This document shows positions 15,705-64,000 of a stretch of 64,000 nt of DNA, piece by piece (within the stretch, counting starts at the first letter, position 1; every line of letters starts with the position of its first letter). The DNA is taken from positions 124,001 to 188,000 of the forward strand of contig CM035359.1 of assembly GCA_020137815.1 (NCBI GenBank), written 5' to 3'. Below the pieces are notes generated by a model. It was not told the origin of the DNA. It saw only the letters and a program-made list of their open reading frames with translations, and did no database searches. Made by a program: the position numbers and the translations under genes. The stretch comes from Hormiphora californensis. Its lineage: Eukaryota > Animalia > Ctenophora.

Positions 15705-15721
15705 AGTAAATATGACTCGAG

Positions 15722-17299
15722 TAAAAAAATTTCTCCCCCAAAAAAAAAAAAAAAAGGGGTTCCCAAAGGGGGGTTTTTTAATTTTTTAAAAGGGGGGGTT
15801 TTTTTTTTTGGGGGGAAAATTTTTTTTTTTCCCCTTTTTTAACTTTTTTCCCCCCCCAAAAAAAAAAATTTTTCTCTTTTTTTGAAAAATTTTTTTTTTT
15901 TTGGGGGGCCCCCCCAAAAAAAAAAAGGGAAACCCCCCTTTTTTTTTTTTTTAAAAAAACCCCCAAAACCCCCCCGGGGGGAAAAAACCCAAATTTTTCC
16001 CCTTTTTTTGGTTTGGTTTTTTTAAAGGGTTTTTTAAAAAAAAACCCTTTTTTTTTAAAAAAAAAAACTTTTCCCCAAAAAAAAAAAAAAAAGCCCCCCC
16101 CCAAAAAGTACAAAAGGGGGGAAAAAAGTTAAAATCATTTTTTTTTTCCCCGGGGGCCCCTTGGTTTTCCTGGGTTTTTTTTCCAAAATTTTCCTTCCCC
16201 TTTTTTTTTCCGGGGGGGTTTTTTTTTGTCTTTTCTTTTTTAAAAATTTTCCTTTTCCCAAAAACCAAAAAAAAAAAACCCCTTTTTGGGAAATTTGGGG
16301 GGGGGCCCCAAAAAAAAAAAAAAAAAAAATTTTTTTTTTTTTAAAAAAAAAAAAAAAAACCCCCGGGGGGGTTTTTTAAAAAAAAAACCCCCAAAAAGAA
16401 ACCCCCCAAAAGGGGGGAAAAACTTTTCCCCCCTTTTTTAAAAAAACGGGGGTTTTTTTTTTTTTTTTTTTCCCCGGGGGAAAATTTTTTTGGGGGGGGG
16501 GAAAAGGGGGGTTTTGGGGGGGGGGAAAAAAGGGGGGTTTTTTTTTTTTTGGGGGGAAAAAAAAGGGGGGGGAAAAAAGGGGTCAGTGATGTTGGGGGGG
16601 GGAAAACCCGGGGGGAAAAAAGGGGGGGGGTTTTTGGGGGGAAAAAAGGGGGGGGGGGGGGGGGTTTTTTTTGGGGGGGAAAAACCCGGGGGAAAAAAGG
16701 GGGGGTTTGGTTGGGCCCCAAAAAAAGGGGGGGGGGGGGGGGAAACCCCCGGGGGGAAGGGGGGGGGGAAAGGGGGGGGTTTTTTTTTTGGGGGGAAAAA
16801 AAAAAATTTTTTTTTGGGGGAAAAAAAGGGGAAAAAGGGGAAAAAAAAAAAGGGGGGAAGGGGAAAAAAGGGGGGGGGGGGGAAAAGGGGGGAAAAAAAA
16901 GGGGGTTTTTGGGGGGGGGGGAAAAAAAAGGGGGAGAAGGGGGGGGGGGGGAAGGGGAAAAGGGGGGGGGGGGGGGGGGGGGAAAAGGGGGGGGGGGGAA
17001 AGGGGTTTGGGGGGGGGAAAAAAAAAGGGGGAAAAATTTAAAAAGGGAAAAAAGGGGGGGGGGGGGGAAAATTTTGGGGGGGGAAATGGGGGAAAAAAAG
17101 GGGGGGGTTTTTTTTTGGGGGGGGGGGGGGGAAAGGGGGGGGGGGGGGGTTAAAAAAAAAAGGGTTTTTTTTTTTTTTTTCCCCCCCCCCCTTTTTTTTT
17201 TTTTCCCCCCCCTAAACCCGGGGCCCCCCCCCTTTTTTTTCCCCCCGGGGGGGGGTTTTAAAAAACCCGGGAAAAAAAAAAAAGGGGGGGGGGGGAAAA

Positions 17300-17330
<31 letters not shown>

Positions 17331-17633
17331 TATTTGGGGGAAAAAAAATTTTTGGGGGGGGGGGGGGGTTTTTTTTTTTTTTTTTTTTGGGGGGGGGGGG
17401 GGCCCCAAAAAAAAAGGGGGGGGGGGTTAAAAACCCCCCCCCTTTAAAAAAACCCCCCCTTTTTTTTTTCCCCAAAATGAAAAAAAAAGGGTTTTTTTTA
17501 AAAAAAAAAAAAAAAAAAATTTTTAAAAAAAACCCCCCCGGGGGGGAAAAAACCCGGGGGGGTTAAAAAACCCCCCCGGGGGGGGAAAAAAAAGGGGGGG
17601 GGGGAAAAAAGGGGGGGGGTAAAAAAAAAACCC

Positions 17634-17706
<73 letters not shown>

Positions 17707-18060
17707 TTTTTTTAAAAAAAAAGGGGGGGGGGAAAAAACCCCCCCCGGGGGCCCCTTTTTCCCCCGGGGGGGGGAAAAAAAAAAAAAACCCCCCAAAAAA
17801 AACCCCAAAAGGGGAAAAAAAATTTTTTTTTTTTTTTAAAAAAAAAAAAAGGGTAAAAAATTTTTGGGAAAAACTTTTTTTAAAAAAAACCCCCCCCCAA
17901 AAAAAATTTACCCCCCTTTTTTTTTGGGGGTTTGGGGTATTAAGGGGGAAAAAAAAAATTTTTAAACCTTTTTTTTAAAAAGGGTTTTTTTTTTAAAAAA
18001 AAGGGTTTTTGGGGGGGAAGGGGGCCCCCTTTTTTTTTCCCCCCTTTCCTTAAAAAAATA
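15722..18060. other. Homopolymer-run region, probable sequencing/basecalling artefact
   Basis: Almost entirely A/G/T/C runs with no periodicity; ORFs are only K/G/F/P. Confidence 0.85.
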
Positions 18061-23620: not shown

Positions 23621-26600
23621 TCATGGACACCACTCTAGTATTGAGTTGCTGTTTGCTTGAGCAGGATAACCGCTGATGGGGGGTGTATCCGGAATGGTAG
23701 AGAGGAAACTACCTAGCTGAGATTTGAACTGATAAAGAGTTGGGGCCTCCTTTACAGATCGAGGCAAAGTGTTCCACAACCTTGCCCCCAGTACCGCAAA
23801 TGATTGTTCATATAGCGACAAGATAGATCGTTGAGCCTCGTACGAGTATCGAGGGACGACAGCTCTAGGGCCAGAGCGGTGACTGTCGACGAAACACATG
23901 TCAGTACTGTTGGGTATCTCATTGTTGTACACTTTCCACACAAGAATCATAGTGTACCTCTCTCGTCGGCGCTGAAGCGACAAAAGTCCCAGGGTTTGAA
24001 GACGTTGCCAGTAGTTCAGCCCCTTGAGACCAACGATCTTACGGGTGTAAGATCGTTGAATATCCTCAACACGACTGATATCCCCATTTTTGGAAGGTGA
24101 CCACAGTGTGCAACAGTAGTCAAGATGGGGACGCACCAGTGACTTGTAAAGAGTCATCATGGTGCGGCGAGTTCTGGATCTAAATGCACTTAACGTCCAT
24201 CCAGCAACCCGACTAGCCGTGGTAACAACTCGAGATATTTGGGCCGACCATTGACCATCACTCGAGAGTAGAACACCTAAGTCTCGGACAGTGTCTGTTG
24301 GATCGATGAACCTCCCATCAGACAGTTGATAGGAATAGTTCTCAGCACTGAACGGTACTTCTCTAAGCGAACTGGTGTGATTCAGGGTGAAATTCATGAC
24401 CTCGAACTTTGACTGGTGCAAGGACATATTGTTAGCGTCAGCCCAGGTTATCACACTGTTCAGATCCTCCTGTAGGTTCAATTTTTCAACCATAGTACGG
24501 ATAGCAGAGAAGATTTTAGTGTCATCAGCGAACGACAAAGAAGAACCGTGTTTGATTACGGATTCCAGGTCAATTACATAAATCAGAAATAAAAGTGGAC
24601 CGAGAACAGTCCCTTGTGGGACCCCACTTCTGACTTCTGCAAAAGAAGACGCTACGCCGTCGACTAAGACCGTTTGTTTCCGGTCTAGTAGGAAGCTGCG
24701 GATCCATTCAAGGAGTTTGCCCTTAACTCCATATCTCTGCAGCTTTTCGAGAAGTATACCGATGTCAACTTTATCAAACGCCTTCTCGAAGTCCAAGTAG
24801 ATTACATCCACTTCAAGAAGGTCGTTGAGATTGTTCAGAATATTGTCAATGTGACGAGTGAGTTGGGATAAGCAGCTCCTCTTGCTTCTAAACCCATGCT
24901 GAGACTCGTTAAACAAGTTCTCTGATTCAAAGTATGACACCATTTGAGATCTTACAACCCGTTCAAATGTCTTGGCAATGTGACTGGTGAGGGAGATCGG
25001 GCGGTAATTTTCAGCTTTCATTTTAGGACCCTTTTTGTAGAGGGGTGCAATGTACTGAAGTTTCAGACAGGGTGGTACAATGCCAGAATCAAACGATTTG
25101 GCCCATAAGATGGATAGGGGGTAGGACAGCGATGATCGGCAGTCACGTAAAATTCTGGCAGGTACATCTCCTGGAGGGCCGGCTGAATAGGGATTGAGGT
25201 CATGTAGTGCCTTTTCAATATCAGCGGTGGAGAAAACGATGTCTGAAAGGCTGCATGTAGAAGGAGTAATGTTGTCTGCAGCTGCTGAAGGGGAGTTTGA
25301 AGGAGTGCTGAAAGACAGAGGTAAATTGTGATTGAAATAGTTCTGCCTTCATCTCGGGAACGTCCGTAAGTGACCCATCACTTTTCTGTAAAGGAGGTAT
25401 ACGTGACCGGGTCTTCCTCTTTCGGTTGGCGTATGACCAGAAGAATTTTGGGTTAGCTTTGAGTTTTATCAACGCCTCGTTTTCATCAGAATCAAGTCGC
25501 TGAGAAATGTGACACAAGATGGCCCAAGTAATTCTGGAAACACCAACCTCTAGCTGTGGCAAAAGGTGAGGTTTATTCTGCCGGGCAAGAGTAATCCGTT
25601 TATTCAAACTCCGCTGTTTCACTTTCAATTTCCTGAGAATAGGGTCCCTTCTTTTTTTACGGGCCTTCTTCTTACGAGAGTGGTGAGATAAGACCTGTAG
25701 AACAGTCAGGGTGAAAAGTTGAACGAAATCAGAACCATCACCGTCATCGCAGATGTCGGCGAGTGCTATCCAGTCGATCTGGTCCAACTCCCTACACATT
25801 TCAGGGAAGTTAGCCTCGTGAAAGTTGTAAATATCAAAGTCTGTGAATCGATGGTCTGATTGACGAGTGGGTAAGATACCAAACCCAAGTGTAGAGCTGA
25901 TCATATTATGGTCAGAAATACACGACTCCGATACCTCAGTTTTGAAGACATAGTCTGGCCGGTTGGTGAGAACGAGGTCTAGAATATTCAAGCCCCGTGT
26001 TGGAGAGTCAACAAGCTGAGTGAGAAAATATGAGTTCACAAATTTTAGTAGCATCTGTGAGCTAGGTCCTCCAGTGAGTGTCCCCCAGTCTATGTCTGGC
26101 ATATTGAAGTCGCCCATGACATAGATGTCAGGACAACCCTTGTCGAGTTCGCACTGATCAATGAAACGGGATAGATCATCAAAAAGATCATTCGCAGGGG
26201 AAGATGGCGCCCTGTACACAACACAGAAAACCGAGTGAGTCTCCTTGATGTATACAGCAGCCGCACTATTGGACGTGTCTGAGAATCTGAACTCAGAGGA
26301 AGGGGTCAGTTGATTGTTAATGTAGAGTGCACAACCGCCACCTCTTCTACCCGCTCTGTCACAACGAGTTAGGTGAAAGCCTTCAATCTCCAATTGGGCA
26401 TCAGAGAAATCATCATGCCACCAGGTCTCCGTAATACCGGTGCAAAGGATGGGTATTGACGGATTCTCCAGTGAGTCCTTGATAAAAGAAAACTTCCACC
26501 GACAGTCACTAGCCGCGGAAGGCGTTAAACTGCGGGCGTTGATGAGGAGTAATTCCGAAACCGTTCCAGAACCCCTTGGTAGTTGGTCGGGGTGTTCAGG

Positions 26601-26765
26601 CCTGGTTGTGTGAGTGTCAGATGTTTGGGCCGGGGTGTGTGTTCCCTCGTCATCTCTTCCCTGAAGGACTGTAGAGATGAGTTCAGTGACGTCTTTACTT
26701 CTCGAAGAATCTCGTCCCTCACTGAGGCCATCAATGCCATGAGAAAATCCTCTTGTGAACGGATG
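23621..26765 (-). CDS. LINE ORF2: AP endonuclease + reverse transcriptase; one +1 frameshift at ~25312
   Basis: Motifs LINARSL, ITETW, VYRAP, GDFN, LDLV, SDHN, NYRPISLTS, LDFEKAFD, GVPQGTVLGP, FADD. Removing one base near 25312 joins ORFs 25221-26393 and 23621-25021 (TSVF-STPSNSP...PLYKKGPKMKAENYRP). Confidence 0.93.
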
Positions 26766-27931
26766 TCATTGGTCGCGGCACGGGGATCGGTCTCAGTTTT
26801 GTTAATCTTCTTCTTCTTCTTCTTCTTTGGGTTTGGAGGAGCTGAGCGAGGGGTCTCTTTCTGCTCCACTTTCTGAGGGACACCACTGGTTTTGTTACCA
26901 GCAGTCTTCAATGAATTACCCTTGGTAGGGGCTACTTCACTTCTCCGAGTGTTCTTTAAATGTGTGTCTTTACATTCTTTGTCGGTACAGACTCGGGAGA
27001 TCTCAGACTTATGGCAGAGAGGTGGGTGAAAATCCTGGCACTGGTCACCATAGTTACACCCAGAACGAGTTGCCGTTCCGAACTGACAATAACGGAGGCA
27101 TCTCTGAGGATGTTCCTTGCTGCAAGGCTTACCACTGATCAACTTGTCACCATTTGGGCCATGGGGACAGTCTCTCAGTAGATAACGTTCACAAACATTG
27201 CTGAATTTAGGAACACCTTGGGGTTTCACCTCTCCATCAGAAGATATGTCTCCAAGATCCACATCTTTTAGAACTGTCACTCCACCAACAGGAGTTACCA
27301 GATCATCAGGATCTTTCTTGACAGGAGCTTGTTTCTTCTTCCTCTTCTTCTTACCGCTACGGCCTGCCTTCGGACTGATTTTGAACTCGTATTCCTCATC
27401 AGATAACACTGATTCTGGATCTTCAGCACTTCGGTTGCACATGAAGGTTTCAATTTTGTTGTTTTTGTCCTTGCACGGCAGACACAACCAGACCGACCCC
27501 GTCAATGACCCAAGGGTGCCATCCATAGCCTCGCAATCATGAGACCCCTGCTGGCAAAGAAAACAGCGGACACGAGGAGATTCACCTGGTTTAACTGCAT
27601 ACCCTTCGCCACAGCCCTCACAGTCACAAGGAAAATGACTTTCCAGCTGAATGATGATGTAGTCGGCTAGTGTAGTGCGGTTCTGGTACCGCTTAGTTTT
27701 ATCTGCATGTGAGCCGGGGGATGCACCGAAAAACGATGCAGCGGCTTCCAGGTGAGCACAGTTGAATGTGCGGATGATGTCTAGATTCTTGGTGTAATCC
27801 ACATCATGGCGGTAGGCAGACAGGATCTTTTTGGTAAGGGGATCTGCTGCGTTTACAAGATTTCCAACGGCAAGGGCATTACCATCACTTTTGTCATCAG
27901 TAGGTGTAGCCATATTTGTCATATCTGGCAT
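26525..27931 (-). CDS. LINE ORF1 (468 aa): PHD-like finger, three CCCH-type fingers, two poly-Lys tracts
   Basis: CEGC...CFLC...HDC...WLCLPC; CERYLLRDC...CSKEH, CLRYC...CNYGDQCQDFH, CHKSEISRVCTDKECKDTH. Confidence 0.88.
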   Translation of the reverse strand: MPDMTNMATPTDDKSDGNALAVGNLVNAADPLTKKILSAYRHDVDYTKNLDIIRTFNCAHLEAAASFFGASPGSHADKTKRYQNRTTLADYIIIQLESHFPCDCEGCGEGYAVKPGESPRVRCFLCQQGSHDCEAMDGTLGSLTGSVWLCLPCKDKNNKIETFMCNRSAEDPESVLSDEEYEFKISPKAGRSGKKKRKKKQAPVKKDPDDLVTPVGGVTVLKDVDLGDISSDGEVKPQGVPKFSNVCERYLLRDCPHGPNGDKLISGKPCSKEHPQRCLRYCQFGTATRSGCNYGDQCQDFHPPLCHKSEISRVCTDKECKDTHLKNTRRSEVAPTKGNSLKTAGNKTSGVPQKVEQKETPRSAPPNPKKKKKKKINKTETDPRAATNDIRSQEDFLMALMASVRDEILREVKTSLNSSLQSFREEMTREHTPRPKHLTLTQPGLNTPTNYQGVLERFRNYSSSTPAV

Positions 27932-27955
27932 GGCTAGAGCCTACAGAGGGATATT

Positions 27956-32625: not shown

Positions 32626-32632
32626 TATAAAA
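32626..32632 (+). promoter_or_regulatory. TATA box
   Basis: TATAAAA 51 nt before the ATG (context accaccATG) of the secreted-peptide ORF. Confidence 0.55.
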
Positions 32633-32682
32633 CCACCGCACAACCCCTCATTTCTCAATCCACTCCAACCATCAATACCACC

Positions 32683-32964
32683 ATGATCCGAACCTGTGTT
32701 GTTATACTTGCCGTCCTGGCCGTCATCTCTACAAAAGACATCTACACTGACCGGCCCCGACCTGTCCCAACCTCTGACCCTTCTCCTTTCAATCAACTGA
32801 AGGAAGCTTTTCAACGCCTGCTCAGCAGGGCGGAGGAAGAGGCTCAGAACCTCAGATACAGGCTTGAAGATGAGGCTGTGGACTTTGCCGAGGAGATAGA
32901 GGAAAGTGTGGTGGAAAGGGTTGAGGCTCTAGCCGATCTGATTGACGAGGGACTTGATTACTAA
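32683..32964 (+). CDS. Small secreted acidic protein / peptide-precursor candidate (93 aa, single exon)
   Basis: Signal-peptide-like N-terminus MIRTCVVILAVLAVIST, Pro-rich linker, acidic helical C-terminus, TATA box, GC step against AT-rich 3' flank. Confidence 0.75.
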   Translation: MIRTCVVILAVLAVISTKDIYTDRPRPVPTSDPSPFNQLKEAFQRLLSRAEEEAQNLRYRLEDEAVDFAEEIEESVVERVEALADLIDEGLDY

Positions 32965-33471: not shown

Positions 33472-33896
33472 TGTTCTGTTCCTACCCTGTTCCTTAGCAC
33501 TCCCTTCTGTTCCTACCCTGTTCCTTAGCACTCCCTTCTGTTCCTACCCTGTTCCTTAGCACTCCATTCTGCTCCTACCCTGTTCCTTAGCACTCCATTC
33601 TGCTCCTACCCTGTTCCTTAGCACTCCCTTCTGTTCCTACCCTGTTCCTTAGCACTTCGTTCTGTTCCTACCCTGTTCCTTAGCACTCCATTCTGCTCCT
33701 ACCCTGTTCCTTAGCACTCCGTTCTGTTCCTACCCTGTTCCTTAGCACTTTGTTCTGTTCCTACCCTGTTCCTTAGCACTTCGTTCTGTTCCTACCCTGT
33801 TCCTTAGCACTTCGTTCTGTTCCTACCCTGTTCCTTAGCACTGCGTTCTGTTCCTACCCTGTTCCTTAGCACTTCGTTCTGTTCCTACCCTGTTCC
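33472..33896. repeat. 31-bp minisatellite (ttctgttcctaccctgttccttagcactccc), ~14 copies
   Basis: Period 31 read directly. Confidence 0.95.
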
Positions 33897-36443: not shown

Positions 36444-36876
36444 CAGAGGTAACATAAGGTACAGGTGTTACTGGTGTTAGGTTATACCAAGTCAATTGTC
36501 AATTTGTCTTTGCAGCCTTGTAGTTGTTTCGATTTTTCATGCTTCACTGAATTGAAATTTCTAAATTTTCTACACCTTTTTAGATTCACACCATCCGAAC
36601 TAAAAGAGAAAGTTCTACAACGCTCCATAGACAGTATGTCATTTCACCGAGAATTGCATAGAATAAAATTTTCATTTTTAAAGTTGCATAAACTATTCTA
36701 ACACTTTGAATATTTCATTTTCCTGGTAGTGGCTAGTCAGAATTATGCAACCTTTTAATTTTCAACTAAGAGAAGTGCAATATATTTCTTGATAAATTCC
36801 CTACTTTTTAACTATACTACATATGAGGGGCATTAAATAATCCCAAATAACAGTTGTATTGATAAATAACAGTGAA

Positions 36877-37146
36877 TAAGTTGGATAATCCCCGATAAGT
36901 TGGATAATCCCAGATAAGTTGGATAATCCCAGATAAGTTGGATAATCCCGGATAAGTTGGATAATCCCAGATAAGTTGGATAATCCCCGATAAGTTGGAT
37001 AATCCCAGATAAGTTGGATAATCCCAGATAAGTTGGATAATCCCAGATAAGTTGGATAATCCCAGATAAGTTGGATAATCCCAGATAAGTTGGATAATCC
37101 CAGATAAGTTGGATAATCCCAGATAAGATGGATAATCCCAGATAAG
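36877..37146. repeat. 19-bp minisatellite (ataagttggataatcccag), ~14 copies
   Basis: Period 19 read directly. Confidence 0.95.
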
Positions 37147-46278: not shown

Positions 46279-49122
<2,844 letters not shown>

Positions 49123-51894: not shown

Positions 51895-53460
51895 CAGGGT
51901 GTCCCATATATTCTCCGGGTCGGTTGGCGAGCTGTCACGCAAAAACGGTGATAGTTGTGTGAAAACAAACTGCGGTAGTGTGCTGGATTAATTCCTTCCT
52001 AACTGATGGCTTTGTTTTAAAATTAAATTTCAAAAGTTCATTTTTCATGAATGAACATTGTTGCCGTTCATTCATGAATTCTGAAATATTGTTTACCTTG
52101 AGTAAGTAACTTTTCTTTGGCTCGCAATTATCTTTCCATTGAGCACCATAAAACTCAAATTGAAGCACCAGGTCACATGACAGTTGAGAAAATGAACATG
52201 CATGATTTTGGCTCTTTTTGCGACTTTCAATCGGCTGTATCACCGCTACCTTACCTTCAATCTTTTTGAAACTTTGGGTGAACATTGGATAAGCAAAGAT
52301 CTTTGCTCACAAGAAAAATCAAGGTCAAAACTCAAAGTTCATTTTTAAGTTTTGGTAGTTCATTCCACTCATTCAGGAACCAACAACCCTAAAGTGATGG
52401 AAAAGTGTTGGATTTTGTTTGGCCAATGTCCTGCAATGACAGAGAGGTGTAGTAACGTGTTTCCGGGCTAGTTAGTGGGTGTCCATGTGATCTTGGTGAT
52501 ACCTGACACCTTCACTGAGCAATAATCAAGGGATTTTCTCGAATTCAAGCATGTGATTTGGGTTTTCTGCGATTGGTATCGTGCAGCAATGTTAAGAGAT
52601 CTCATAGCCTTCGAAAATGGTGGTTAGTTCAATGAAATGAGTTGAGTTATGATCGAAAATGGTCGTTGAGTTCAATGTGGCATCGGTTTTAATCTTATTG
52701 ATCATAAATCAACTCAATTTATTGAACGTATCATCATTTTTGAGGTGCTATGTGATCTCTCAAGATTGCTGCACGATACCAATCGCAGTAGACCCGAATC
52801 ACATGCTTGAATTCGAGAAAATCCCTTGATTATTGCTCAGTGAAGGTGTCAGGTATCACCAAGATCACATGGACACCCACTAACTAGCCCGGAAACACGT
52901 AACTACACCTCTCTGTCATTGCAGGACATTGGCCAAACAAAATCCAACACTTTTCCATCACTTTAGGGTTGTTGGTTCCTGAATGAGTGGAATGAACTAC
53001 CAAAACTTAAAAATGAACTTTGAGTTTTGACATTGATTTTTCTTGTGAGCAAAGATCTTTGCTTATCCAATGTTCACCCAAAGTTTCAAAAAGATTGAAG
53101 GTAAGGTAGCGGTGATACAGCCGATTGAAAGTCGCAAAAAGAGCCAAAATCATGCATGTTCATTTTCTCAACTGTCATGTGACCTGGTGCTTCAATTTGA
53201 GTTTTATGGTGCTCAATGGAAAGATAATTGCGAGCCAAAGAAAAGTTACTTACTCAAGGTAAACAATATTTCAGAATTCATGAATGAACGGCAGCAATGT
53301 TCATTCATGAAAAATGAACTTTTGAAATTTAATTTTAAAACAAAGCCATCAGTTAGGAAGGAATTAATCCAGCACACTCCCGCAGTTTGTTTTCACACAA
53401 CTATCACCGTTTTTGCGTGACAGCTCGCCAACCGACCCGGAGAATATATGGGACACCCTG
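51895..53460. mobile_element. 1.57-kb near-perfect foldback element, Tc1/mariner-type ends, TA TSD
   Basis: TA|cagggtgtcccatata ... tatatgggacaccctg|TA; mirror ORFs 51935-52285(-) and 53070-53420(+). Confidence 0.92.
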
Positions 53461-53866: not shown

Positions 53867-56800
53867 TCATTTCATACCCTTATCCACTACCGCCATCAAT
53901 TTCTTATCGTTAGTATTGAGAATCTTCTGACAAGTCAGAGTAAAGACTCGCTCAAAGACGCGGGGTGGGGTGTTCGATGCGATGAGCTTTAACGTTATCT
54001 GGCCAGTTTTACCTGCAGGGATGATGTGTCACACTATATATGGGCGAAGACCTGTCTGGCGGTGTCAGACCCCAATTTGATTGTCAAATCTCAAAGTGCT
54101 TGACTGACTGGAGGCACTCGGGTTCTATACTGCCTATAATGTTTTACTTTGTGTGATGAGAATTGGGAGCCCTGGGATACCTGAATTGAAGAAGATCCAT
54201 TTCCCGTGAGCGGTAGACTTGATGAATGCGTTAGTCTGAAGAGCCTTCCATTGACCTGGCAGGGTTGGAATAATATTAGAGAAAGTGTACACATGGTTCA
54301 CACATCAGATCTGTTTAGACTATACCACCCTCGTGAAACCGAGACGCACTTACAAATAACTCGAGGTTTCCAGTCGGTGGGTTTTTAATTTTTATGGTGT
54401 TACGATGGGAAACACAAAATAGGTACTTTATGAATTATTTACCTTGGGTAAGCAGATGGGAGAAGCTGTTTAGAAGAAAGGAGAAGATGTTGGTGGCGAG
54501 AGAGAAGTATAGAAGGAACCAGAAGATAAGGAAAAAGTAACTGTTGACAACATTTGGGGCGAGGACACACAACCCTGAAAATGAGTGTTGAGTAACTGAA
54601 ACAAAACTAAAAATGGTGGGAATTTTGTAATGGTGCGGTAACATTGATCGGTTACAATGATATCATTTTAACATTACGAAATTCCCACAATCACTGTAAC
54701 CGATATCGGTTACAGTGATTGAGACCTGTACTGGGTTGTGTCGTGTTCGAACTTCGATGTTCGATGAAGGGGCTACCGTTGTTTTTTTGATAGAAAGAGA
54801 GAATCTGATTCTCTTTCTCTCAAAATAAACATGATACAGATTACAGTCGGACCCCGATTTACCGGGATACTCGGGGAAAGAGTTTTGCCTGGTATCCGTA
54901 TATCGGCGGTCAGAGCATTTTAATTGGCCTGACCCATTCTCGGAGCGTGCGAGAACTGTGGTCAGAGCATTGGCCTGACAGTATTATATCGGGGTACCCG
55001 GTATATCGAGGTACCCAGTATATCAGGGTCTGATTGCAGAACCATGCTCACTAAAACCTAAATTGACTGATTCGTGACGACGTGACCAGCTTGTCACTTA
55101 AAGTTAATGAGCTAGTCAAGATCTACTGATGATAATGTCTCGACAAGCTATCATTAACGAAATAATACCTTTCACTCTATGTCTCGTCGACACATCATCA
55201 TCATTGTCGGTTTTTGAAACTTGTTGAATTACACAAAAAAGTCTCTTAAACATCCCGCTTTAGCTTGAACCACTAGCACGATCAATCGTGACGTAAAAAG
55301 ACAGTACTTTTGAGTTTTGGGTTTTCGATTTTTCGACATTTCTCAACCCCTTGATAAGATTAAAACTTTGAGGTTGAAGGTTCGATTTAGTAGAGTTCTT
55401 TCTAACCTCCAAATTTAAAGTCTCTATCTCATCAAGGGGTGCAGTATTGGTGTGAAGTATCACGAAAGTGGGGGACATGATCAATGTCAATGTGGGGGAC
55501 ATGATCAGTGTTAATGTGGGGGACATGATCAGTGTCAATGTGGGGGACATGATCAGTGTCAATGTGGTGGACATGATCAGTGTCAATGTGGTGGACATGA
55601 TCAGTGTCAATGTCACAGTTGACCGCCCACTGATGTTTGTTGACGGGAGGCGCGGCGACAGGAACGTGTCAAAAGACTACACGCGCGCAGAGTACCGTGG
55701 GAAATTTGAGTGTTACTCCCACGGTTGGTTGGTGCGCTGACAAGCGTCAGTGTATCCAATTCAACCTACCACTTTCATCCACTAATCCAGTTGTTCCCCA
55801 CATTTTCACCTCACACGAGACCATCTTAGGAAACAATTTATCCACCGGATTGTTCAAGTTGCCTGAGGGAGTGACGGTTAGATTTAATTTTCTTAATTTG
55901 ATCTTACGAACTAGCTCACAGCGTGAGCTACACATACCTCAACCATGACCAATGTGAATTAGATCAGTACTAAAGCCTCAACAGTATTGTGATCATTTTG
56001 AAATCGAGCAATTTGTGTTCAAAATAATTTTGTAGGTTGTTGTGTAAACTTCAAAACTAAAGAAAGTTTTAGTTAGTTGCTAAAATTAACATTCCTCCAC
56101 TAACCTGGATTCGGCTTGCTGATGTAAGACAACCAGTCCGATCCATAGGTGAGAAAACTGGACACTTTAAATATCTGAAATAGCATGGTGCAGTCGGACC
56201 CCGAATTAACGGAACCCCAATTTACCAGGAGGATAAACTTCCCCAGATATTGGAAATTCACAGTACAATTTGGAACCAATATAATACCGGGCACCTCAAT
56301 TTACCGGGGAAAAAACCAGCTTCCCCGAGCATCCCGGTAAATCGAGGTCCGACTGTATATACTTGCCTGGCTAGACTGTGTTTCGGGCGCCCCGCCCCCG
56401 AATCTTTACAAATGTAAAGGGAGGGTTAGTACATAACAAGTATATACCTGGTTAGTGGCAATTAGAGTTCCTATCGTTAGGACCAGGTTGAGAAACTTAT
56501 TGGTAATAACCACGAAAACCAACCAGTGCTTCACTTTTATCAACTCTAGTGGTCCTGTATAATGGTTAGGTTGTGTTACTCAAAAGTTAAACGGTCCTGT
56601 TATTCAGTTATTGGGAGATGTTGTGTTACCCAAGTCTCGAATGCAGTCCTGTGTTATATGTAGTGGTAATTCCAAAAAGAAGCAAGGGATGTCAGGTGAT
56701 GTTTAGTTAGAATTGGGGTGCTTGAGAGAGGGATCATGAATCTACTCCACACCTTATCCCACCATGTCTCGTAGATATGACATTGACTCCACCTTATCCC

Positions 56801-59576
56801 AACATGTCTCAAAGATATGACATTGACTCCACCTTATCCCAACATGTCTCAAAGATATGACATTGACTCCACCTTACCCCACCATGTCTCGAAGATATGA
56901 CATTGACTCCACCTTCTTATCCCACCATGTCTCAAAGATATGACATTGACTCCACCTTACCCCACTATGTCTCGAAGATATGACATTGACTCCACCTTAC
57001 CCCACCATGTCTCAAAGATATGACATTGACTCCACCTTATCCTACCATGTCTCAAAGATATGACATTGACTCCACCTTACCCCAACATGTCGCGAAGATA
57101 TGACATTGACTCCACCTTACCCCACCATGTCTCAAAGATATGACATTGACTCCACCTTACCCCACCATGTCTCAAAGATATGACATTGACTCCACCTTAC
57201 CCCACCATGTCTCGAAGATATGACATTGACTCCACCTTACCCCACCATGTCTCAAAGATATGACATTGACTCCACCTTATCCCACTATGTCTCAAAGATA
57301 TGACATTGACTCCACCTTACCCCACTATGTCTCGAAGATATGACATTGACTCCACCTTACCCCACTATGTCTCAAAGATATGACATTAATGACACAGTGT
57401 CGCGCTTCGTCAGCAGACGTTTTCAATGTTCATAGTGTCCGATTGTCCGAAATCGGTCACAAGCTGAAATCTAGACAAACTTTTCTAATTCTCTTCCTTT
57501 ACATTCTGCTGTCTCTTTCTCTTTCTTGTTACAAGGTCACGTGATTAGATGTGGAACATCTCGACATGATAACAACGTCTAGTGTCACCGATTCGCTCTC
57601 TCTATCTGCTGAGTATAACTCTCTCGTCATGACGAAGAAGATGTGACTCTCTTCCTTTCTCTCTATTTCTGTGGCTATTATATCTCTTTCTCTCTCTCCC
57701 TCTCTTTCTCTTGTCATGACGAAGCGCCACGCTCTACCACACTCAGCACCACAGCTAGTCACGTGACCCTGTCAACGATTTCAGACACCATGATCACGTC
57801 TACTGACGAAGCGCCACACTTTGCCACACTCAGAACCAATTACAGAATCGGTGTAACACATTGCTTGGGGCTGATTACCCCCAGTAAGACACGTGATACG
57901 TGATACCTGAGTGCAAAAATGCTCCCAATTAGGCCGACCTACACCACTTTGCCGTGTTCCTGCGAAGGAACTAAAAAAGATATCGCCAAACCAAGCAGCC
58001 AAAAGTTAGTAAATTATCTAATCAACATATTGTGAAAGTTTGAGCTCTCTACCTCATCAGGTTGCAGAGATCTGAGCGCTCAAAGTTAGAGGAGGTTTTT
58101 GGGCTAAAGCTTCATTCAGGAACGACCGATTTTACTGAAATTCGAGTACAATAAATGGCAGGTAGCCATCTACCTTGTCCTAAAATTTCAGAGCAAAATA
58201 TTCACAACTTTTGACGCTATGTCGATTTGAACAGTCTCAGTCATTTAAAAACACACAGTATCTCGTTCATAATATCCTACAATTGCAATTTAGTATTTAC
58301 CCTTTGCGACCATGCACTCGCTGAGACGGCGTGATAACCATACCGCTGCTTTCTCAATCTTCTCCTTTTCTTCCGACTCAGACTCCACTTTTTTGCTATC
58401 CATACACATCAACTTGCCTGTGAGGAGTGCAGGGTTATCAGGAGCTCTCTGTTTGATCAAGGGGAGTGGTTATCAGGAGATGTCTGTCGGGTACCGATCA
58501 TATAAAATTTATAAGAAATATCAGAGAATCTGAACGTGGCCAGCGCCGCCCGACATGTCAATTATGACAGGTATGCCAGACTAAACTGGGTCGAGATTGT
58601 CAGACACTGACTGTACATCGCGCAACCTCGGCCCGGTGCGAAGAGGACGGTCTTATATGAGACAAGGTCGAGATATAGGAGCTGAGGATTGGTGACATTG
58701 GCACACGTGCAGAGAGTTCGAACTGTATGCCTCTTCTTCCTGGGTACCATTGCCACCTATTCGTGCAGTGTGAGAGTTTTTCACACACGAAGCGAGAATA
58801 GGTGGCAATGGTACCAGGGAAGATGATCGCCGCAGGAACCGACCGAAACAAGTAAACAACCAATCAGAACTCGTTATTTAGGTCACGTGATTGGTTATCA
58901 GCCAATCAGGGACCAGTATTTCCTGATTCGGTCGGTTCCTGAGGATCGGGCATACAAAGTTTTCAATAATAAACTATGCGGCCCATACTTATACTTGACA
59001 GCTCAAGACTAAAGTCTTGCAAGGCCTTGTGTATTATCTCAGCTATGTACAGTCTGGCGCCGCCGATCCAATCTGAGCGCACTGTCGAGAATTTGAGAAT
59101 CAAATCGAGGCCTGGCGCCGCTACACAGGCTAAGTAAGTACAAATTACTTCAATCCGTGATCGTCTGGATCATAATAGTCTGGAGATGTCAAGTAAGACA
59201 GCTTTAAACGATATAATTTATCTTCCTCCAAATTTGCGTTTCAATCTATTTGAACGTCACTGGTTAAGTTAGGTTGGGTCGGCACCGCCAGACACTGTCT
59301 GAGACTGTCAGTTGGTAATGAAATTATCCCTCCGGCCTCCACGCGAGCGCCCCAGTTACCAAGAGTAAGACTGTCAGAGCATTGACCTGACAGGTCTGAG
59401 ACAGATCACGAGCGAAAATACATGAAAACACTTACAGATGGGCTTGATTTCCCCAATGGGCGAGCTCTTATAGATCAGGTAGGGCAGCCAATAGAGAAAG
59501 GCCATGAGGAAGAAATAGAAGGGAATCCATTGGTACCAGAGGAGGTACACTTTAGTAACGTTCGGGTAGAGACCAT
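53867..59576 (-). CDS. Innexin (gap-junction protein), 3' eight exons: 59576-59436, 58417-58301, 56554-56448, 56174-56105, 55862-55770, 54574-54443, 54255-54181, 54012-53867; 5' exons lie beyond the window
   Basis: In-phase GT-AG joins give KVYLLWYQWIPFYF...LPYLIYK (innexin YQW signature/TM2), TM3 LVFVVITNKFLNLVL, FLTYGSDW, LFPKMVSCEVKMWGTTG...GLCVLAPNVVNSYFFLIFWF (EL2/TM4), and tail ASNTPPRVFE...DKGMK*. Confidence 0.92.
55468..55611. repeat. 24-bp minisatellite (gtgggggacatgatcagtgtcaat) x6, innexin intron
   Basis: Direct tandem copies. Confidence 0.92.
56743..57388. repeat. 40-bp minisatellite (actccaccttaccccaccatgtctcaaagatatgacattg), ~16 copies, innexin intron
   Basis: Period 40 read directly. 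Confidence 0.95.
58833..58941. mobile_element. 109-bp MITE with CAGGAACCGACCGAA TIRs (partial copies ~44677-44746, ~51320-51403)
   Basis: caggaaccgaccgaa...ttcggtcggttcctg; three copies in the window; resembles an abundant Pleurobrachia repeat as I recall it. Confidence 0.8.
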
Positions 59577-62500
59577 CTGGTACTATACCAGGGTAGGGTA
59601 CCTATAGTAGGGAGGTACACTTTAGTTGGGGTAGAGACCATCTGGTACTATACCAGGGTAGGGTACCTATAGTAGGGAGGTACACTTTAGTTAGGGTAGA
59701 GACCATCTGGTACTATACCAGGGTAGGGTACCTGTAGTAGGGAGGTACACTTTAGTTAGGGTAGAGACCATCTGGTACTATACCAGGGTAGGGTACCTGT
59801 AGTAGGGAGGTACACTTTAGTTAGGGTAGAGACCATCTGGTACTATACCAGGGTAGGGTACCTGTAGTAGGGAGGTACACTTTAGTTAGGGTAGAGACCA
59901 TCTGGTACTATACCAGGGTAGGGTACCTGTAGTAGGGAGGTACACTTTAGTTAGGGTAGAGACCATCTGGTACTATACCAGGGTAGGGTACCTATAGTAG
60001 GGAGGTACACTTTAGTTAGGGTAGAGACCATCTGGTACTATACCAGGGTAGGGTACCTATAGTAGGGAGGTACACTTTAGTTAGGGTAGAGACCATCTGG
60101 TACTATACCAGGGTAGGGTACCTGTAGTAGGGAGGTACACTTTAGTTAGGGTAGAGACCATCTGGTACTATACCAGGGTAGGGTACCTGTAGTAGGGAGG
60201 TACACTTTAGTTAGGGTAGAGACCATCTGGTACTATACCAGGGTAGGGTACCTGTAGTAGGGAGGTACACTTTAGTTAGGGTAGAGACCATCTGGTACTA
60301 TACCAGGGTAGGGTACCTATAGTAGGGAGGTACACTTTAGTTAGGGTAGAGACCATCTGGTACTATACCAGGGTAGGGTACCTGTAGTAGGGAGGTACAC
60401 TTTAGTTAGGGTAGAGACCATCTGGTACTATACCAGAGGTAGGGTACCTGTAGTAGGGAGGTACACTTTAGTTAGGGTAGAGACCATCTGGTACTATACC
60501 AGGGTAGGGTACCTGTAGTAGGGAGGTACACTTTAGTTAGGGTAGAGACCATCTGGTACTATACCAGGGTAGGGTACCTATAGTAGGGAGGTACACTTTA
60601 GTTAGGGTAGAGACCATCTGGTACTATACCAGGGTAGGGTACCTGTAGTAGGGAGGTACACTTTAGTTAGGGTAGAGACCATCTGGTACTATACCAGGGT
60701 AGGGTACCTATAGTAGGGAGGTACACTTTAGTTAGGGTAGAGACCATCTGGTACTATACCAGGGTAGGGTACCTATAGTAGGGAGGTACACTTTAGTTAG
60801 GGTAGAGACCATCTGGTACTATACCAGGGTAGGGTACCTATAGTAGGGAGGTACACTTTAGTTAGGGTAGAGACCATCTGGTACTATACCAGGGTAGGGT
60901 ACCTGTAGTAGGGAGGTACACTTTAGTTAGGGTAGAGACCATCTGGTACTATACCAGGGTAGGGTACCTGTAGTAGTAGGGAGGTACACTTTAGTTAGGG
61001 TAGAGACCATCTGGTACTATACCAGGGTAGGGTACCTGTAGTAGGGAGGTACACTTTAGTTAGGGTAGAGACCATCTGGTACTATACCAGGGTAGGGTAC
61101 CTATAGTAGGGAGGTACACTTTAGTTAGGGTAGAGACCATCTGGTACTATACCAGGGTAGGGTACCTGTAGTAGGGAGGTACACTTTAGTTAGGGTAGAG
61201 ACCATCTGGTACTATACCAGGGTAGGGTACCTAGTAGTAGGGAGGTACACTTTAGTTAGGGTAGAGACCATCTGGTACTATACCAGGGTAGGGTACCTGT
61301 AGTAGTAGGGAGGTACACTTTAGTTAGGGTAGAGACCATCTGGTACTATACCAGGGTAGGGTACCTGTAGTAGGGAGGTACACTTTAGTTAGGGTAGAGA
61401 CCATCTGGTACTATACCAGGGTAGGGTACCTGTAGTAGGGAGGTACACTTTAGTTAGGGTAGAGACCATCTGGTACTATACCAGGGTAGGGTACCTGTAG
61501 TAGGGAGGTACACTTTAGTTAGGGTAGAGACCATCTGGTACTATACCAGGGTAGGGTACCTGTAGTAGTAGGGAGGTACACTTTAGTTAGGGTAGAGACC
61601 ATCTGGTACTATACCAGGGTAGGGTACCTGTAGTAGGGAGGTACACTTTAGTTAGGGTAGAGACCATCTGGTACTATACCAGGGTAGGGTACCTGTAGTA
61701 GGGAGGTACACTTTAGTTAGGGTAGAGACCATCTGGTACTATACCAGGGTAGGGTACCTGTAGTAGGGAGGTACACTTTAGTTAGGGTAGAGACCATCTG
61801 GTACTATACCAGGGTAGGGTACCTGTAGTAGGGAGGTACACTTTAGTTAGGGTAGAGACCATCTGGTACTATACCAGGGTAGGGTACCTGTAGTAGGGAG
61901 GTACACTTTAGTTAGGGTAGAGACCATCTGGTACTATACCAGGGTAGGGTACCTGTAGTAGGGAGGTACACTTTAGTTAGGGTAGAGACCATCTGGTACT
62001 ATACCAGGGTAGGGTACCTATAGTAGGGAGGTACACTTTAGTTAGGGTAGAGACCATCTGGTACTATACCAGGGTAGGGTACCTGTAGTAGGGAGGTACA
62101 CTTTAGTTAGGGTAGAGACCATCTGGTACTATACCAGGGTAGGGTACCTGTAGTAGTAGGGAGGTACACTTTAGTTAGGGTAGAGACCATCTGGTACTAT
62201 ACCAGGGTAGGGTACCTGTAGTAGGGAGGTACACTTTAGTTAGGGTAGAGACCATCTGGTACTATACCAGGGTAGGGTACCTGTAGTAGGGAGGTACACT
62301 TTAGTTAGGGTAGAGACCATCTGGTACTATACCAGGGTAGGGTACCTGTAGTAGGGAGGTACACTTTAGTTAGGGTAGAGACCATCTGGTACTATACCAG
62401 GGTAGGGTACCTGTAGTAGGGAGGTACACTTTAGTTAGGGTAGAGACCATCTGGTACTATACCAGGGTAGGGTACCTGTAGTAGGGAGGTACACTTTAGT

Positions 62501-64000
62501 TAGGGTAGAGACCATCTGGTACTATACCAGGGTAGGGTACCTGTAGTAGGGAGGTACACTTTAGTTAGGGTAGAGACCATCTGGTACTATACCAGGGTAG
62601 GGTACCTGTAGTAGGGAGGTACACTTTAGTTAGGGTAGAGACCATCTGGTACTATACCAGGGTAGGGTACCTGTAGTAGGGAGGTACACTTTAGTTAGGG
62701 TAGAGACCATCTGGTACTATACCAGGGTAGGGTACCTGTAGTAGGGAGGTACACTTTAGTTAGGGTAGAGACCATCTGGTACTATACCAGGGTAGGGTAC
62801 CTATAGTAGGGAGGTACACTTTAGTTAGGGTAGAGACCATCTGGTACTATACCAGGGTAGGGTACCTGTAGTAGGGAGGTACACTTTAGTTAGGGTAGAG
62901 ACCATCTGGTACTATACCAGGGTAGGGTACCTGTAGTAGTAGGGAGGTACACTTTAGTTAGGGTAGAGACCATCTGGTACTATACCAGGGTAGGGTACCT
63001 GTAGTAGGGAGGTACACTTTAGTTAGGGTAGAGACCATCTGGTACTATACCAGGGTAGGGTACCTGTAGTAGTAGGGAGGTACACTTTAGTTAGGGTAGA
63101 GACCATCTGGTACTATACCAGGGTAGGGTACCTGTAGTAGGGAGGTACACTTTAGTTAGGGTAGAGACCATCTGGTACTATACCAGGGTAGGGTACCTAT
63201 AGTAGGGAGGTACACTTTAGTTAGGGTAGAGACCATCTGGTACTATACCAGGGTAGGGTACCTGTAGTAGGGAGGTACACTTTAGTTAGGGTAGAGACCA
63301 TCTGGTACTATACCAGGGTAGGGTACCTGTAGTAGGGAGGTACACTTTAGTTAGGGTAGAGACCATCTGGTACTATACCAGGGTAGGGTACCTATAGTAG
63401 GGAGGTACACTTTAGTTAGGGTAGAGACCATCTGGTACTATACCAGGGTAGGGTACCTATAGTAGGGAGGTACACTTTAGTTAGGGTAGAGACCATCTGG
63501 TACTATACCAGGGTAGGGTACCTGTAGTAGGGAGGTACACTTTAGTTAGGGTAGAGACCATCTGGTACTATACCAGGGTAGGGTACCTATAGTAGGGAGG
63601 TACACTTTAGTTAGGGTAGAGACCATCTGGTACTATACCAGGGTAGGGTACCTATAGTAGGGAGGTACACTTTAGTTAGGGTAGAGACCATCTGGTACTA
63701 TACCAGGGTAGGGTACCTGTAGTAGGGAGGTACACTTTAGTTAGGGTAGAGACCATCTGGTACTATACCAGGGTAGGGTACCTGTAGTAGGGAGGTACAC
63801 TTTAGTTAGGGTAGAGACCATCTGGTACTATACCAGGGTAGGGTACCTGTAGTAGGGAGGTACACTTTAGTTAGGGTAGAGACCATCTGGTACTATACCA
63901 GGGTAGGGTACCTATAGTAGGGAGGTACACTTTAGTTAGGGTAGAGACCATCTGGTACTATACCAGGGTAGGGTACCTGTACGGAGGGAGGTACACTTTA
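59542..64000. repeat. 65-bp satellite array, ~68 copies, continuing beyond the window; derived from an innexin intron-exon junction
   Basis: Unit gaggtacactttagttagggtagagaccatctggtactataccagggtagggtacct(g/a)tagtagg; occasional +tag variants. Confidence 0.97.

Follow-up and report, generated by a model that had tools for sequence, protein, structure and literature searches.

The 64,000-nt stretch of the genome of the ctenophore Hormiphora californensis analyzed here (the window; contig CM035359.1, positions 124,001 to 188,000 of the forward strand) carries an innexin gene and, adjoining one of its exons, a minisatellite of 65-nt units. Both lie on the minus strand, and all coordinates given below are positions in the window. 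The array is real, its units are 98% identical, and the unit is mostly derived from coding sequence of the innexin itself. There is about an even chance that this tandem repeat of mostly coding innexin DNA acts as a young intron of the type described by the Rogers model, in which a coding segment bearing AG/GT is duplicated in tandem. With confidence falling a little short of that, the array may be seen as an intron at birth: a tract exceeding 4.4 kb composed solely of copies of the gene's coding sequence, in which the scars of both microhomologies can still be read and a stop and a branch site have been gained, with splicing passing over more than 60 equivalent acceptors and the innexin working without an otherwise constant cysteine loop. 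Intron gain by tandem duplication is itself a known route, of which the array is an unusually long case, and as an array of decoy acceptors the feature is an ordinary repeat of the mirage type known from amphioxus.

The array and the origin of its unit

Using Tandem Repeats Finder, a tandem array was located at 59560-64000 with a period of 65, 68.0 copies and 98% matches; it is cut off by the window edge and continues beyond it. It contains 68 GTACCCTACC anchors with 67 whole units between them, in agreement with the roughly 68 copies running to the end of the window that a preliminary description of this DNA had reported. The whole units fall into six types: 41 end in CAG, 17 end in TAG, six carry one extra 3-nt repeat, and three are singletons. 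The terminal exon copy is matched at 55 of the 65 nt of the unit, and relative to it every unit carries the 5-nt deletion already described plus one substitution. Homogenized tandem copies adjoin a putative functional exon, and the copy at the edge is distinct. The sole common point variant in the array is C or T at the Y of YAG (49 C and 19 T), which keeps the acceptor consensus in all copies; no clustering in the order of the C and T variants along the array was detected (runs test, p 0.28). No further occurrence of the unit was found in the window (best match, 12 nt), and no duplicated exon edges were found among the seven downstream innexin exons. Rolling-circle copying of one template was rejected on account of the recurrent variants.

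It is very unlikely that the array is an assembly artefact and that the animal itself has no such array or a far shorter one. The contig does include a stretch of low quality made up of homopolymer runs, from about 15720 to at least 18000, but the recurrent variants (the 17 TAG and six longer units) are irregularly ordered, and one deletion common to all units relative to the exon is not expected from copying a single template.

The stops in the array are directly observed. In the innexin frame a stop follows ...DGLYPN in 66 of the 67 upstream copies, as had been proposed for every copy, while the remaining one, which has a 1-nt insertion, is shifted in frame and stops as well. All 67 upstream copies reach a stop within 15 codons of YAG/GTA, and the frame is open in the terminal copy only, as the preliminary description had also stated. 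Its broader points likewise hold, namely, that the array derives from the innexin's own sequence, that each upstream copy offers an acceptor followed by a stop, and that only splicing to the last copy can yield a functional mRNA. The motif YAG/GTACCC is present at all 68 unit junctions. A recursive-splicing point, to which this motif had been likened earlier, was rejected as its meaning, as the motif is explained by Q and V codons of the source exon and is better read as an AG/GT proto-splice site in former coding DNA.

One departure from the preliminary description concerns the 35 nt that it had assigned to the end of an intron. Of these, 24 nt (59601-59578, minus strand) translate as VPYPGIVP in frame with WYQW. 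Motifs like VPYPGIVP occur in 12 of the 13 innexin homologues from the first search, the exception being a 129-residue fragment, and the score of this segment, 45, was not reached by any of 118,852 control 24-mers taken elsewhere in the window, the highest of which scored 32. The other 10 nt together with the junction read (Y)-L-P-T, one spare base, and Q-V-P-Y-P-G; at this place FDLPQD-IPYPG, YDLPTKN-LPYPG and YDMPTSQ-VPYPG are found in the closest homologues, so that the 10-nt segment resembles their D-L-P-T-x-Q but is out of frame. Among the 3,079 other YAG sites in the window, 24 are preceded by a loose D/N/Y/H-L/M-P pattern and none by the stricter form with T, although the pattern was picked post hoc with the data already seen, and these counts are thus support and not proof. 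The 65-nt unit is mostly, and on this comparison probably wholly, derived from coding sequence, with at most 10 of its 65 nt available as former intron from a pre-existing intron/exon boundary. At the unit junction, the hexamer ACCTCC would be common to the D-L-P codons and to the Y-L-L codons at the other end of the unit, and we infer that it served as microhomology. Two features of the Rogers model are thereby seen in the array: the duplicated segment is coding in origin, and an AG/GT proto-splice site lies inside it.

The 10 nt could also be the remnant of an older intron before VPYPG, whose last 10 nt would have been duplicated and expanded with the first 60 nt of the exon; the acceptor would still be at 59601 and the array would be a harmless by-product. 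Their resemblance to the C-rich acceptors of the gene and their being out of frame with the D-L-P reading fit such an origin, and minisatellites of this kind have been described in amphioxus. Against it, the match to D-L-P-T-x-Q would be due to chance (none of the 3,079 controls), and no intron before [VI]PYPG was found in either of the two intron-bearing related loci, L021 and L022, the only two of 22 fetched loci to be read base by base and neither of them placed as an orthologue. A search aimed at short genomic fragments from the closest clade gave no candidate. In L021 an intron follows WYQ and in L022 one follows the first loop cysteine; these differing positions suggest considerable turnover of introns among ctenophore innexins, and such variation in position also suits an older intron. 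The two-locus comparison nevertheless leans to there having been none, and an origin from a pre-existing boundary is considered unlikely.

Acceptor choice, the innexin gene and its loop

Because 24 of the 35 nt previously taken as intron encode a conserved motif, the acceptor is probably at 59601 and not at 59576, where the preliminary description had placed it. At the claimed acceptor, 59576, a TAG lies 6 nt upstream and the pyrimidine share is 0.53; at 59601 this share is 0.73, and the nearest AG is a weak AAG at 18 nt. None of the seven other acceptors of the innexin gene has an AG closer than 21 nt, and both their pyrimidine content and their AG-free zone are matched better by 59601. RNA folding did not separate the two candidates, as both AGs are predicted to be paired. 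In ordinary units a CTAAC, created by the deletion and the substitution, lies 25 nt before the YAG; four of the seven other acceptors of the gene have CTRAY 12 to 21 nt upstream. The last unit alone has CCAAC, which weakens the branch-like site where it would be needed; this may reflect an error in sequencing or the boundary of an exchange. On the 3' side of the exon that adjoins the array, the donor GTAAGT at 59435 is present as originally described, and the donor-like GTACCC of the array resembles GTATCC, a donor of the innexin gene itself. Exons running from the last three YAG sites to the donor at 59435 would measure 166, 231 and 296 nt, sizes that alone do not exclude the nearest decoys.

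Eight exons from 59601 to 53867, joined by their coordinates, gave an unbroken frame of 301 residues with GT-AG introns of 168 to 1,746 nt. This model covers the part of the gene from 59601 on, the N-terminal exons lying beyond the window. Pfam Innexin (PF00876) matched on two single exons with E values of 8.6e-5 and 0.0093, below the whole-protein cut-off, and identity to the best full-length innexins is 37 to 48%. Protein searches did not recover the full-length product of this gene itself. The closest named protein is Bolinopsis microptera XP_063688638.1 (P0016), with 47.6% identity over 317 aligned columns and KV.LLWYQW common to both. In a tree of 27 rows, from which the short or aberrant proteins P0003, P0013, P0015, P0036, P0042 and P0043 and all proteins under 240 residues were omitted, the model is sister to P0016 with support of 100/99, on an end branch of 0.84 versus 0.55 for P0016. 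Conserved columns are kept at 47 of 53 positions in the model and 51 of 57 in P0016. No frame-breaking indel was found in the 903-nt frame, in which, by a crude estimate, 13 to 26 would be expected at the indel density of the unit if the gene were dead; set against the one or two indels per 70 nt of unit, this suggests continued selection. Two other introns of the gene hold unrelated minisatellites, at 56750-57387 (40 nt, 16 copies) and 55468-55613 (24 nt, six copies), and no copies of exon edges were found in either.

Between PYPG..P and WYQ(W), the model has 13 residues and no cysteine, while P0016 has 32 residues and two cysteines; the exon thus lacks both loop cysteines together. The residues PDGLYPNVTKV of the model align without a gap to the sequence after the second cysteine in P0016 (CPEGGSKPLTKV), which places the junction between V-P-E and C-P-D precisely at the acceptor position of the preliminary description. 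In Caenorhabditis elegans INX-6, only 10 residues lie between two blocks whose distance in the ctenophore alignment is 41 profile positions, a still shorter loop that makes a shortened one structurally plausible. The stretch at 59601-59530 (minus strand) is possibly that of a loop-less innexin.

Alternatively, the cysteine loop may be encoded before the array, the unit having arisen by duplication plus deletion, in which case a splice from the first AG/GT to 59576 or 59601 would leave a duplication of 15 or 24 residues in the loop. The presence of the loop in all complete homologues favors this reading, and the 7-nt spacing within the copies would make the first-copy donor phase 1, the same as 59576. 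A duplication tolerated in the protein would then be required, and 59576, besides having an AG 6 nt upstream, sits behind two AGs after the branch-like site; such an arrangement appears improbable. The gene or haplotype could instead be dead, a broken allele or recent pseudogene in which a duplication within the exon is not cleanly spliced out. The stop in every upstream copy, the loss of a loop present in all complete homologues, the weak GTACCC donor and weakened last branch site, and an end branch longer than that of the sister are all as would be anticipated of such an allele. Arguing against it are the 301 open codons, the seven GT donors and seven AG acceptors intact downstream, the retention of conserved columns about as in the nearest homologue, and the freedom from frameshifts despite the indels of the unit. 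Loss of function was thus judged to be an unlikely explanation.

Proposed origin and comparison with known systems

Read as a young intron, the array may have originated in four steps. First, the two-cysteine extracellular loop would have been lost through a deletion joining V-P-E to C-P-D. About 71 to 72 coding bases containing CAG/GT would then have been duplicated at the ACCTCC microhomology, the first copy providing the donor and the last the acceptor. Losses of 5 nt and of 1 to 2 nt from the intronic copy could subsequently have created the stop as well as the branch-like CTAAC 25 nt before the YAG, and unequal exchange would have expanded and homogenized the array. The predicted splice would join the GT of the first copy (GTACCC) to the last TAG at 59602-59604, restoring the mRNA if the first copy is in frame, with the last acceptor presumably chosen because it is paired with the GTAAGT donor at 59435. 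Splicing to a decoy would lead to a stop and probably to clearance by nonsense-mediated decay, a side effect and not a means of control. The unit anatomy, the coding origin of the 24 nt and the open downstream frame are observed, whereas the donor, all splicing and the order of events are deduced.

Several points weigh against this origin. The 5' edge of the array and the upstream exons lie beyond the end of the window, so the splicing is proposed from the sequence. As 7 nt separate the P codon from the V in internal copies, the first copy must differ from them if the reading frame is to be recovered. It is the last unit that has the weakest branch-like site, CCAAC, the opposite of what selection for splicing would predict. 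Since L021 and L022 were not included in the tree and do not share their intron positions, they leave room for an older intron specific to the lineage. The argument from indels is weakened by their faster rate of origin within repeats and close to the junctions of rearrangements, compared with unique coding DNA. Finally, a loop of 23 to 34 residues with exactly two cysteines was found in 26 of the 27 pattern-matched ctenophore-type proteins, the other being a Pleurobrachia gene model with 85 residues and five cysteines in the loop (of the 44 homologues, 16, most of them fragments, fell outside the pattern, and a further short hit, of a different type, had 14 residues and no cysteine). The two loop cysteines were likewise present in all 19 matching loci among the 22 fetched, and a working loop-less innexin would, from these comparisons, depart from the rule for ctenophore innexins.

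Intron gain by duplication of an exon segment bearing AGGT is established in ATP2A1 and in fission-yeast introns with two to four 24-bp duplicates (PMC3443670, PMC4974935). Like these Rogers-model introns, the array consists of an AG/GT coding segment in tandem, with a pyrimidine tract and a branch-like site in the unit and stops in the intronic copies, the last being present in 18 of 18 Drosophila tandem-duplication intron sequences. Unlike them, it extends beyond 4.4 kb with no fewer than 67 near-identical copies in place of two to four, its splicing is predicted, and the innexin segment also bears the loop deletion. Recently gained introns whose source sequence can still be recognized are described as rare (PMC4974935). 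Stops are in excess in new Drosophila introns (PMC2809761, PMC2891723), which matches the stop and probable decay that mis-splicing into a decoy would bring. Among ctenophore innexins (PF00876; Ortiz et al., PMC9949713), the nearest named relative, P0016, has the loop that the innexin model lacks. A literature search on intron gain and tandem repeats in ctenophores gave a single unrelated paper, in a collection without most subscription journals.

The amphioxus mirages of Adh3, the globins BflGb6 and BflGb9, troponin C and PGBD5 are tandem copies of intron/exon boundaries for which splicing is reported to be undisturbed (PMC3087553, PMC3902484). The array shares with them tandem, homogenized copies of an acceptor and exon start, an excluded edge copy, and many silent splice signals. 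However, mirages copy an existing intron/exon boundary, whereas at most 10 of the 65 nt are possibly intron here, and those are coding-like too; the BflGb6 mirage also has three to six copies, far fewer than the innexin array. In humans, exonic internal tandem repeats form novel introns (PMC2812944), the pseudo-donors of a 37-bp variable number tandem repeat (VNTR) in intron 7 of F7 are silent (PMC1557585), and the length of a VNTR in intron 18 of ABCA7 affects splicing (PMC5954066). These human repeats resemble the array in being minisatellites with splice sites beside or within coding exons that are mostly silent and sometimes cause length-dependent mis-splicing. In F7 and ABCA7 it is the donor end of an old intron that is repeated, while the innexin array, in a ctenophore, repeats the AG/GT of coding DNA.

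The suggestion in the preliminary description that array length tunes innexin output by poison splicing into the decoys gained no support. All decoys do lead to a stop, the single common point variant preserves YAG (49 CAG and 19 TAG), and ABCA7 offers a counter-example to silence in its length-dependent splicing (PMC5954066). Amphioxus mirages and the F7 pseudo-sites stay silent, with the boundary arrays spliced normally in the published accounts (PMC3087553, PMC3902484, PMC1557585), and arrays are a common background here, several unrelated minisatellites being present in the window, two of them within introns of the innexin. A regulatory device is therefore highly improbable.

Features of the window and significance

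The coordinates of the array, its candidate splice signals and the exons of the innexin model are collected in Table 1.

Table 1. Positions of array and innexin features within the 64,000-nt window
Feature	Position	Strand	Remarks
Minisatellite, 65-nt units	59602..64000	-	At least 67 copies upstream of terminal exon copy; likely 3' part of an intron
Branch-point-like site	59625..59629	-	25 nt before YAG; CTAAC in ordinary units, CCAAC in last unit
Unit junction ACCTCC	59611..59616	-	Identical to exon 59541-59546; putative duplication microhomology
TAG, preferred candidate acceptor	59602..59604	-	Phase 0; exon would start at 59601
VPYPGIVP, eight codons	59578..59601	-	Conserved ctenophore innexin motif, present in every unit
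CAG, acceptor of preliminary description	59577..59579	-	Coincides with putative P-E/P-D junction of loop loss
Innexin exon, 166 nt	59436..59601	-	Carries VPYPGIVP, WYQW and second transmembrane segment; donor GTAAGT next
Innexin exon	58301..58417	-	Eight-exon model
Innexin exon	56448..56554	-	Eight-exon model
Innexin exon	56105..56174	-	Eight-exon model
Innexin exon, LFPKM..C	55770..55862	-	Eight-exon model
Innexin exon, CVLAPNV and fourth transmembrane segment	54443..54574	-	Eight-exon model
Innexin exon	54181..54255	-	Donor GTATCC, like GTACCC of the array
Last coding innexin exon, with stop	53867..54012	-	Eight-exon model

Elsewhere in the window, further tandem arrays are present at 33473-33896 and 36876-37146, and 15720-18000 consists of long alternating homopolymer runs like those of an unpolished single long read. 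Downstream of the innexin, at about 51900-53450, lies a long near-perfect inverted repeat in which the same 123-codon frame occurs at 53049-53417 (plus strand) and 52306-51938 (minus strand); this is possibly a foldback or nonautonomous DNA transposon. Three long open frames of 471, 514 and 575 codons at 23624-27940 (minus strand) presumably belong to an element like a long interspersed nuclear element (LINE)-type retroelement with endonuclease and reverse transcriptase. A 175-codon frame with hydrophobic segments at 48595-49119 (plus strand) resembles what we take to be the end of a G-protein-coupled receptor, and a short frame at 32626-32961 (plus strand), with a signal-peptide-like start and an acidic tail, is perhaps an exon of a secreted peptide precursor.

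If confirmed, the innexin array would stand as a clear and very large instance of an intron gained through tandem duplication, and it would provide a natural test of how the spliceosome chooses among many equal acceptors.

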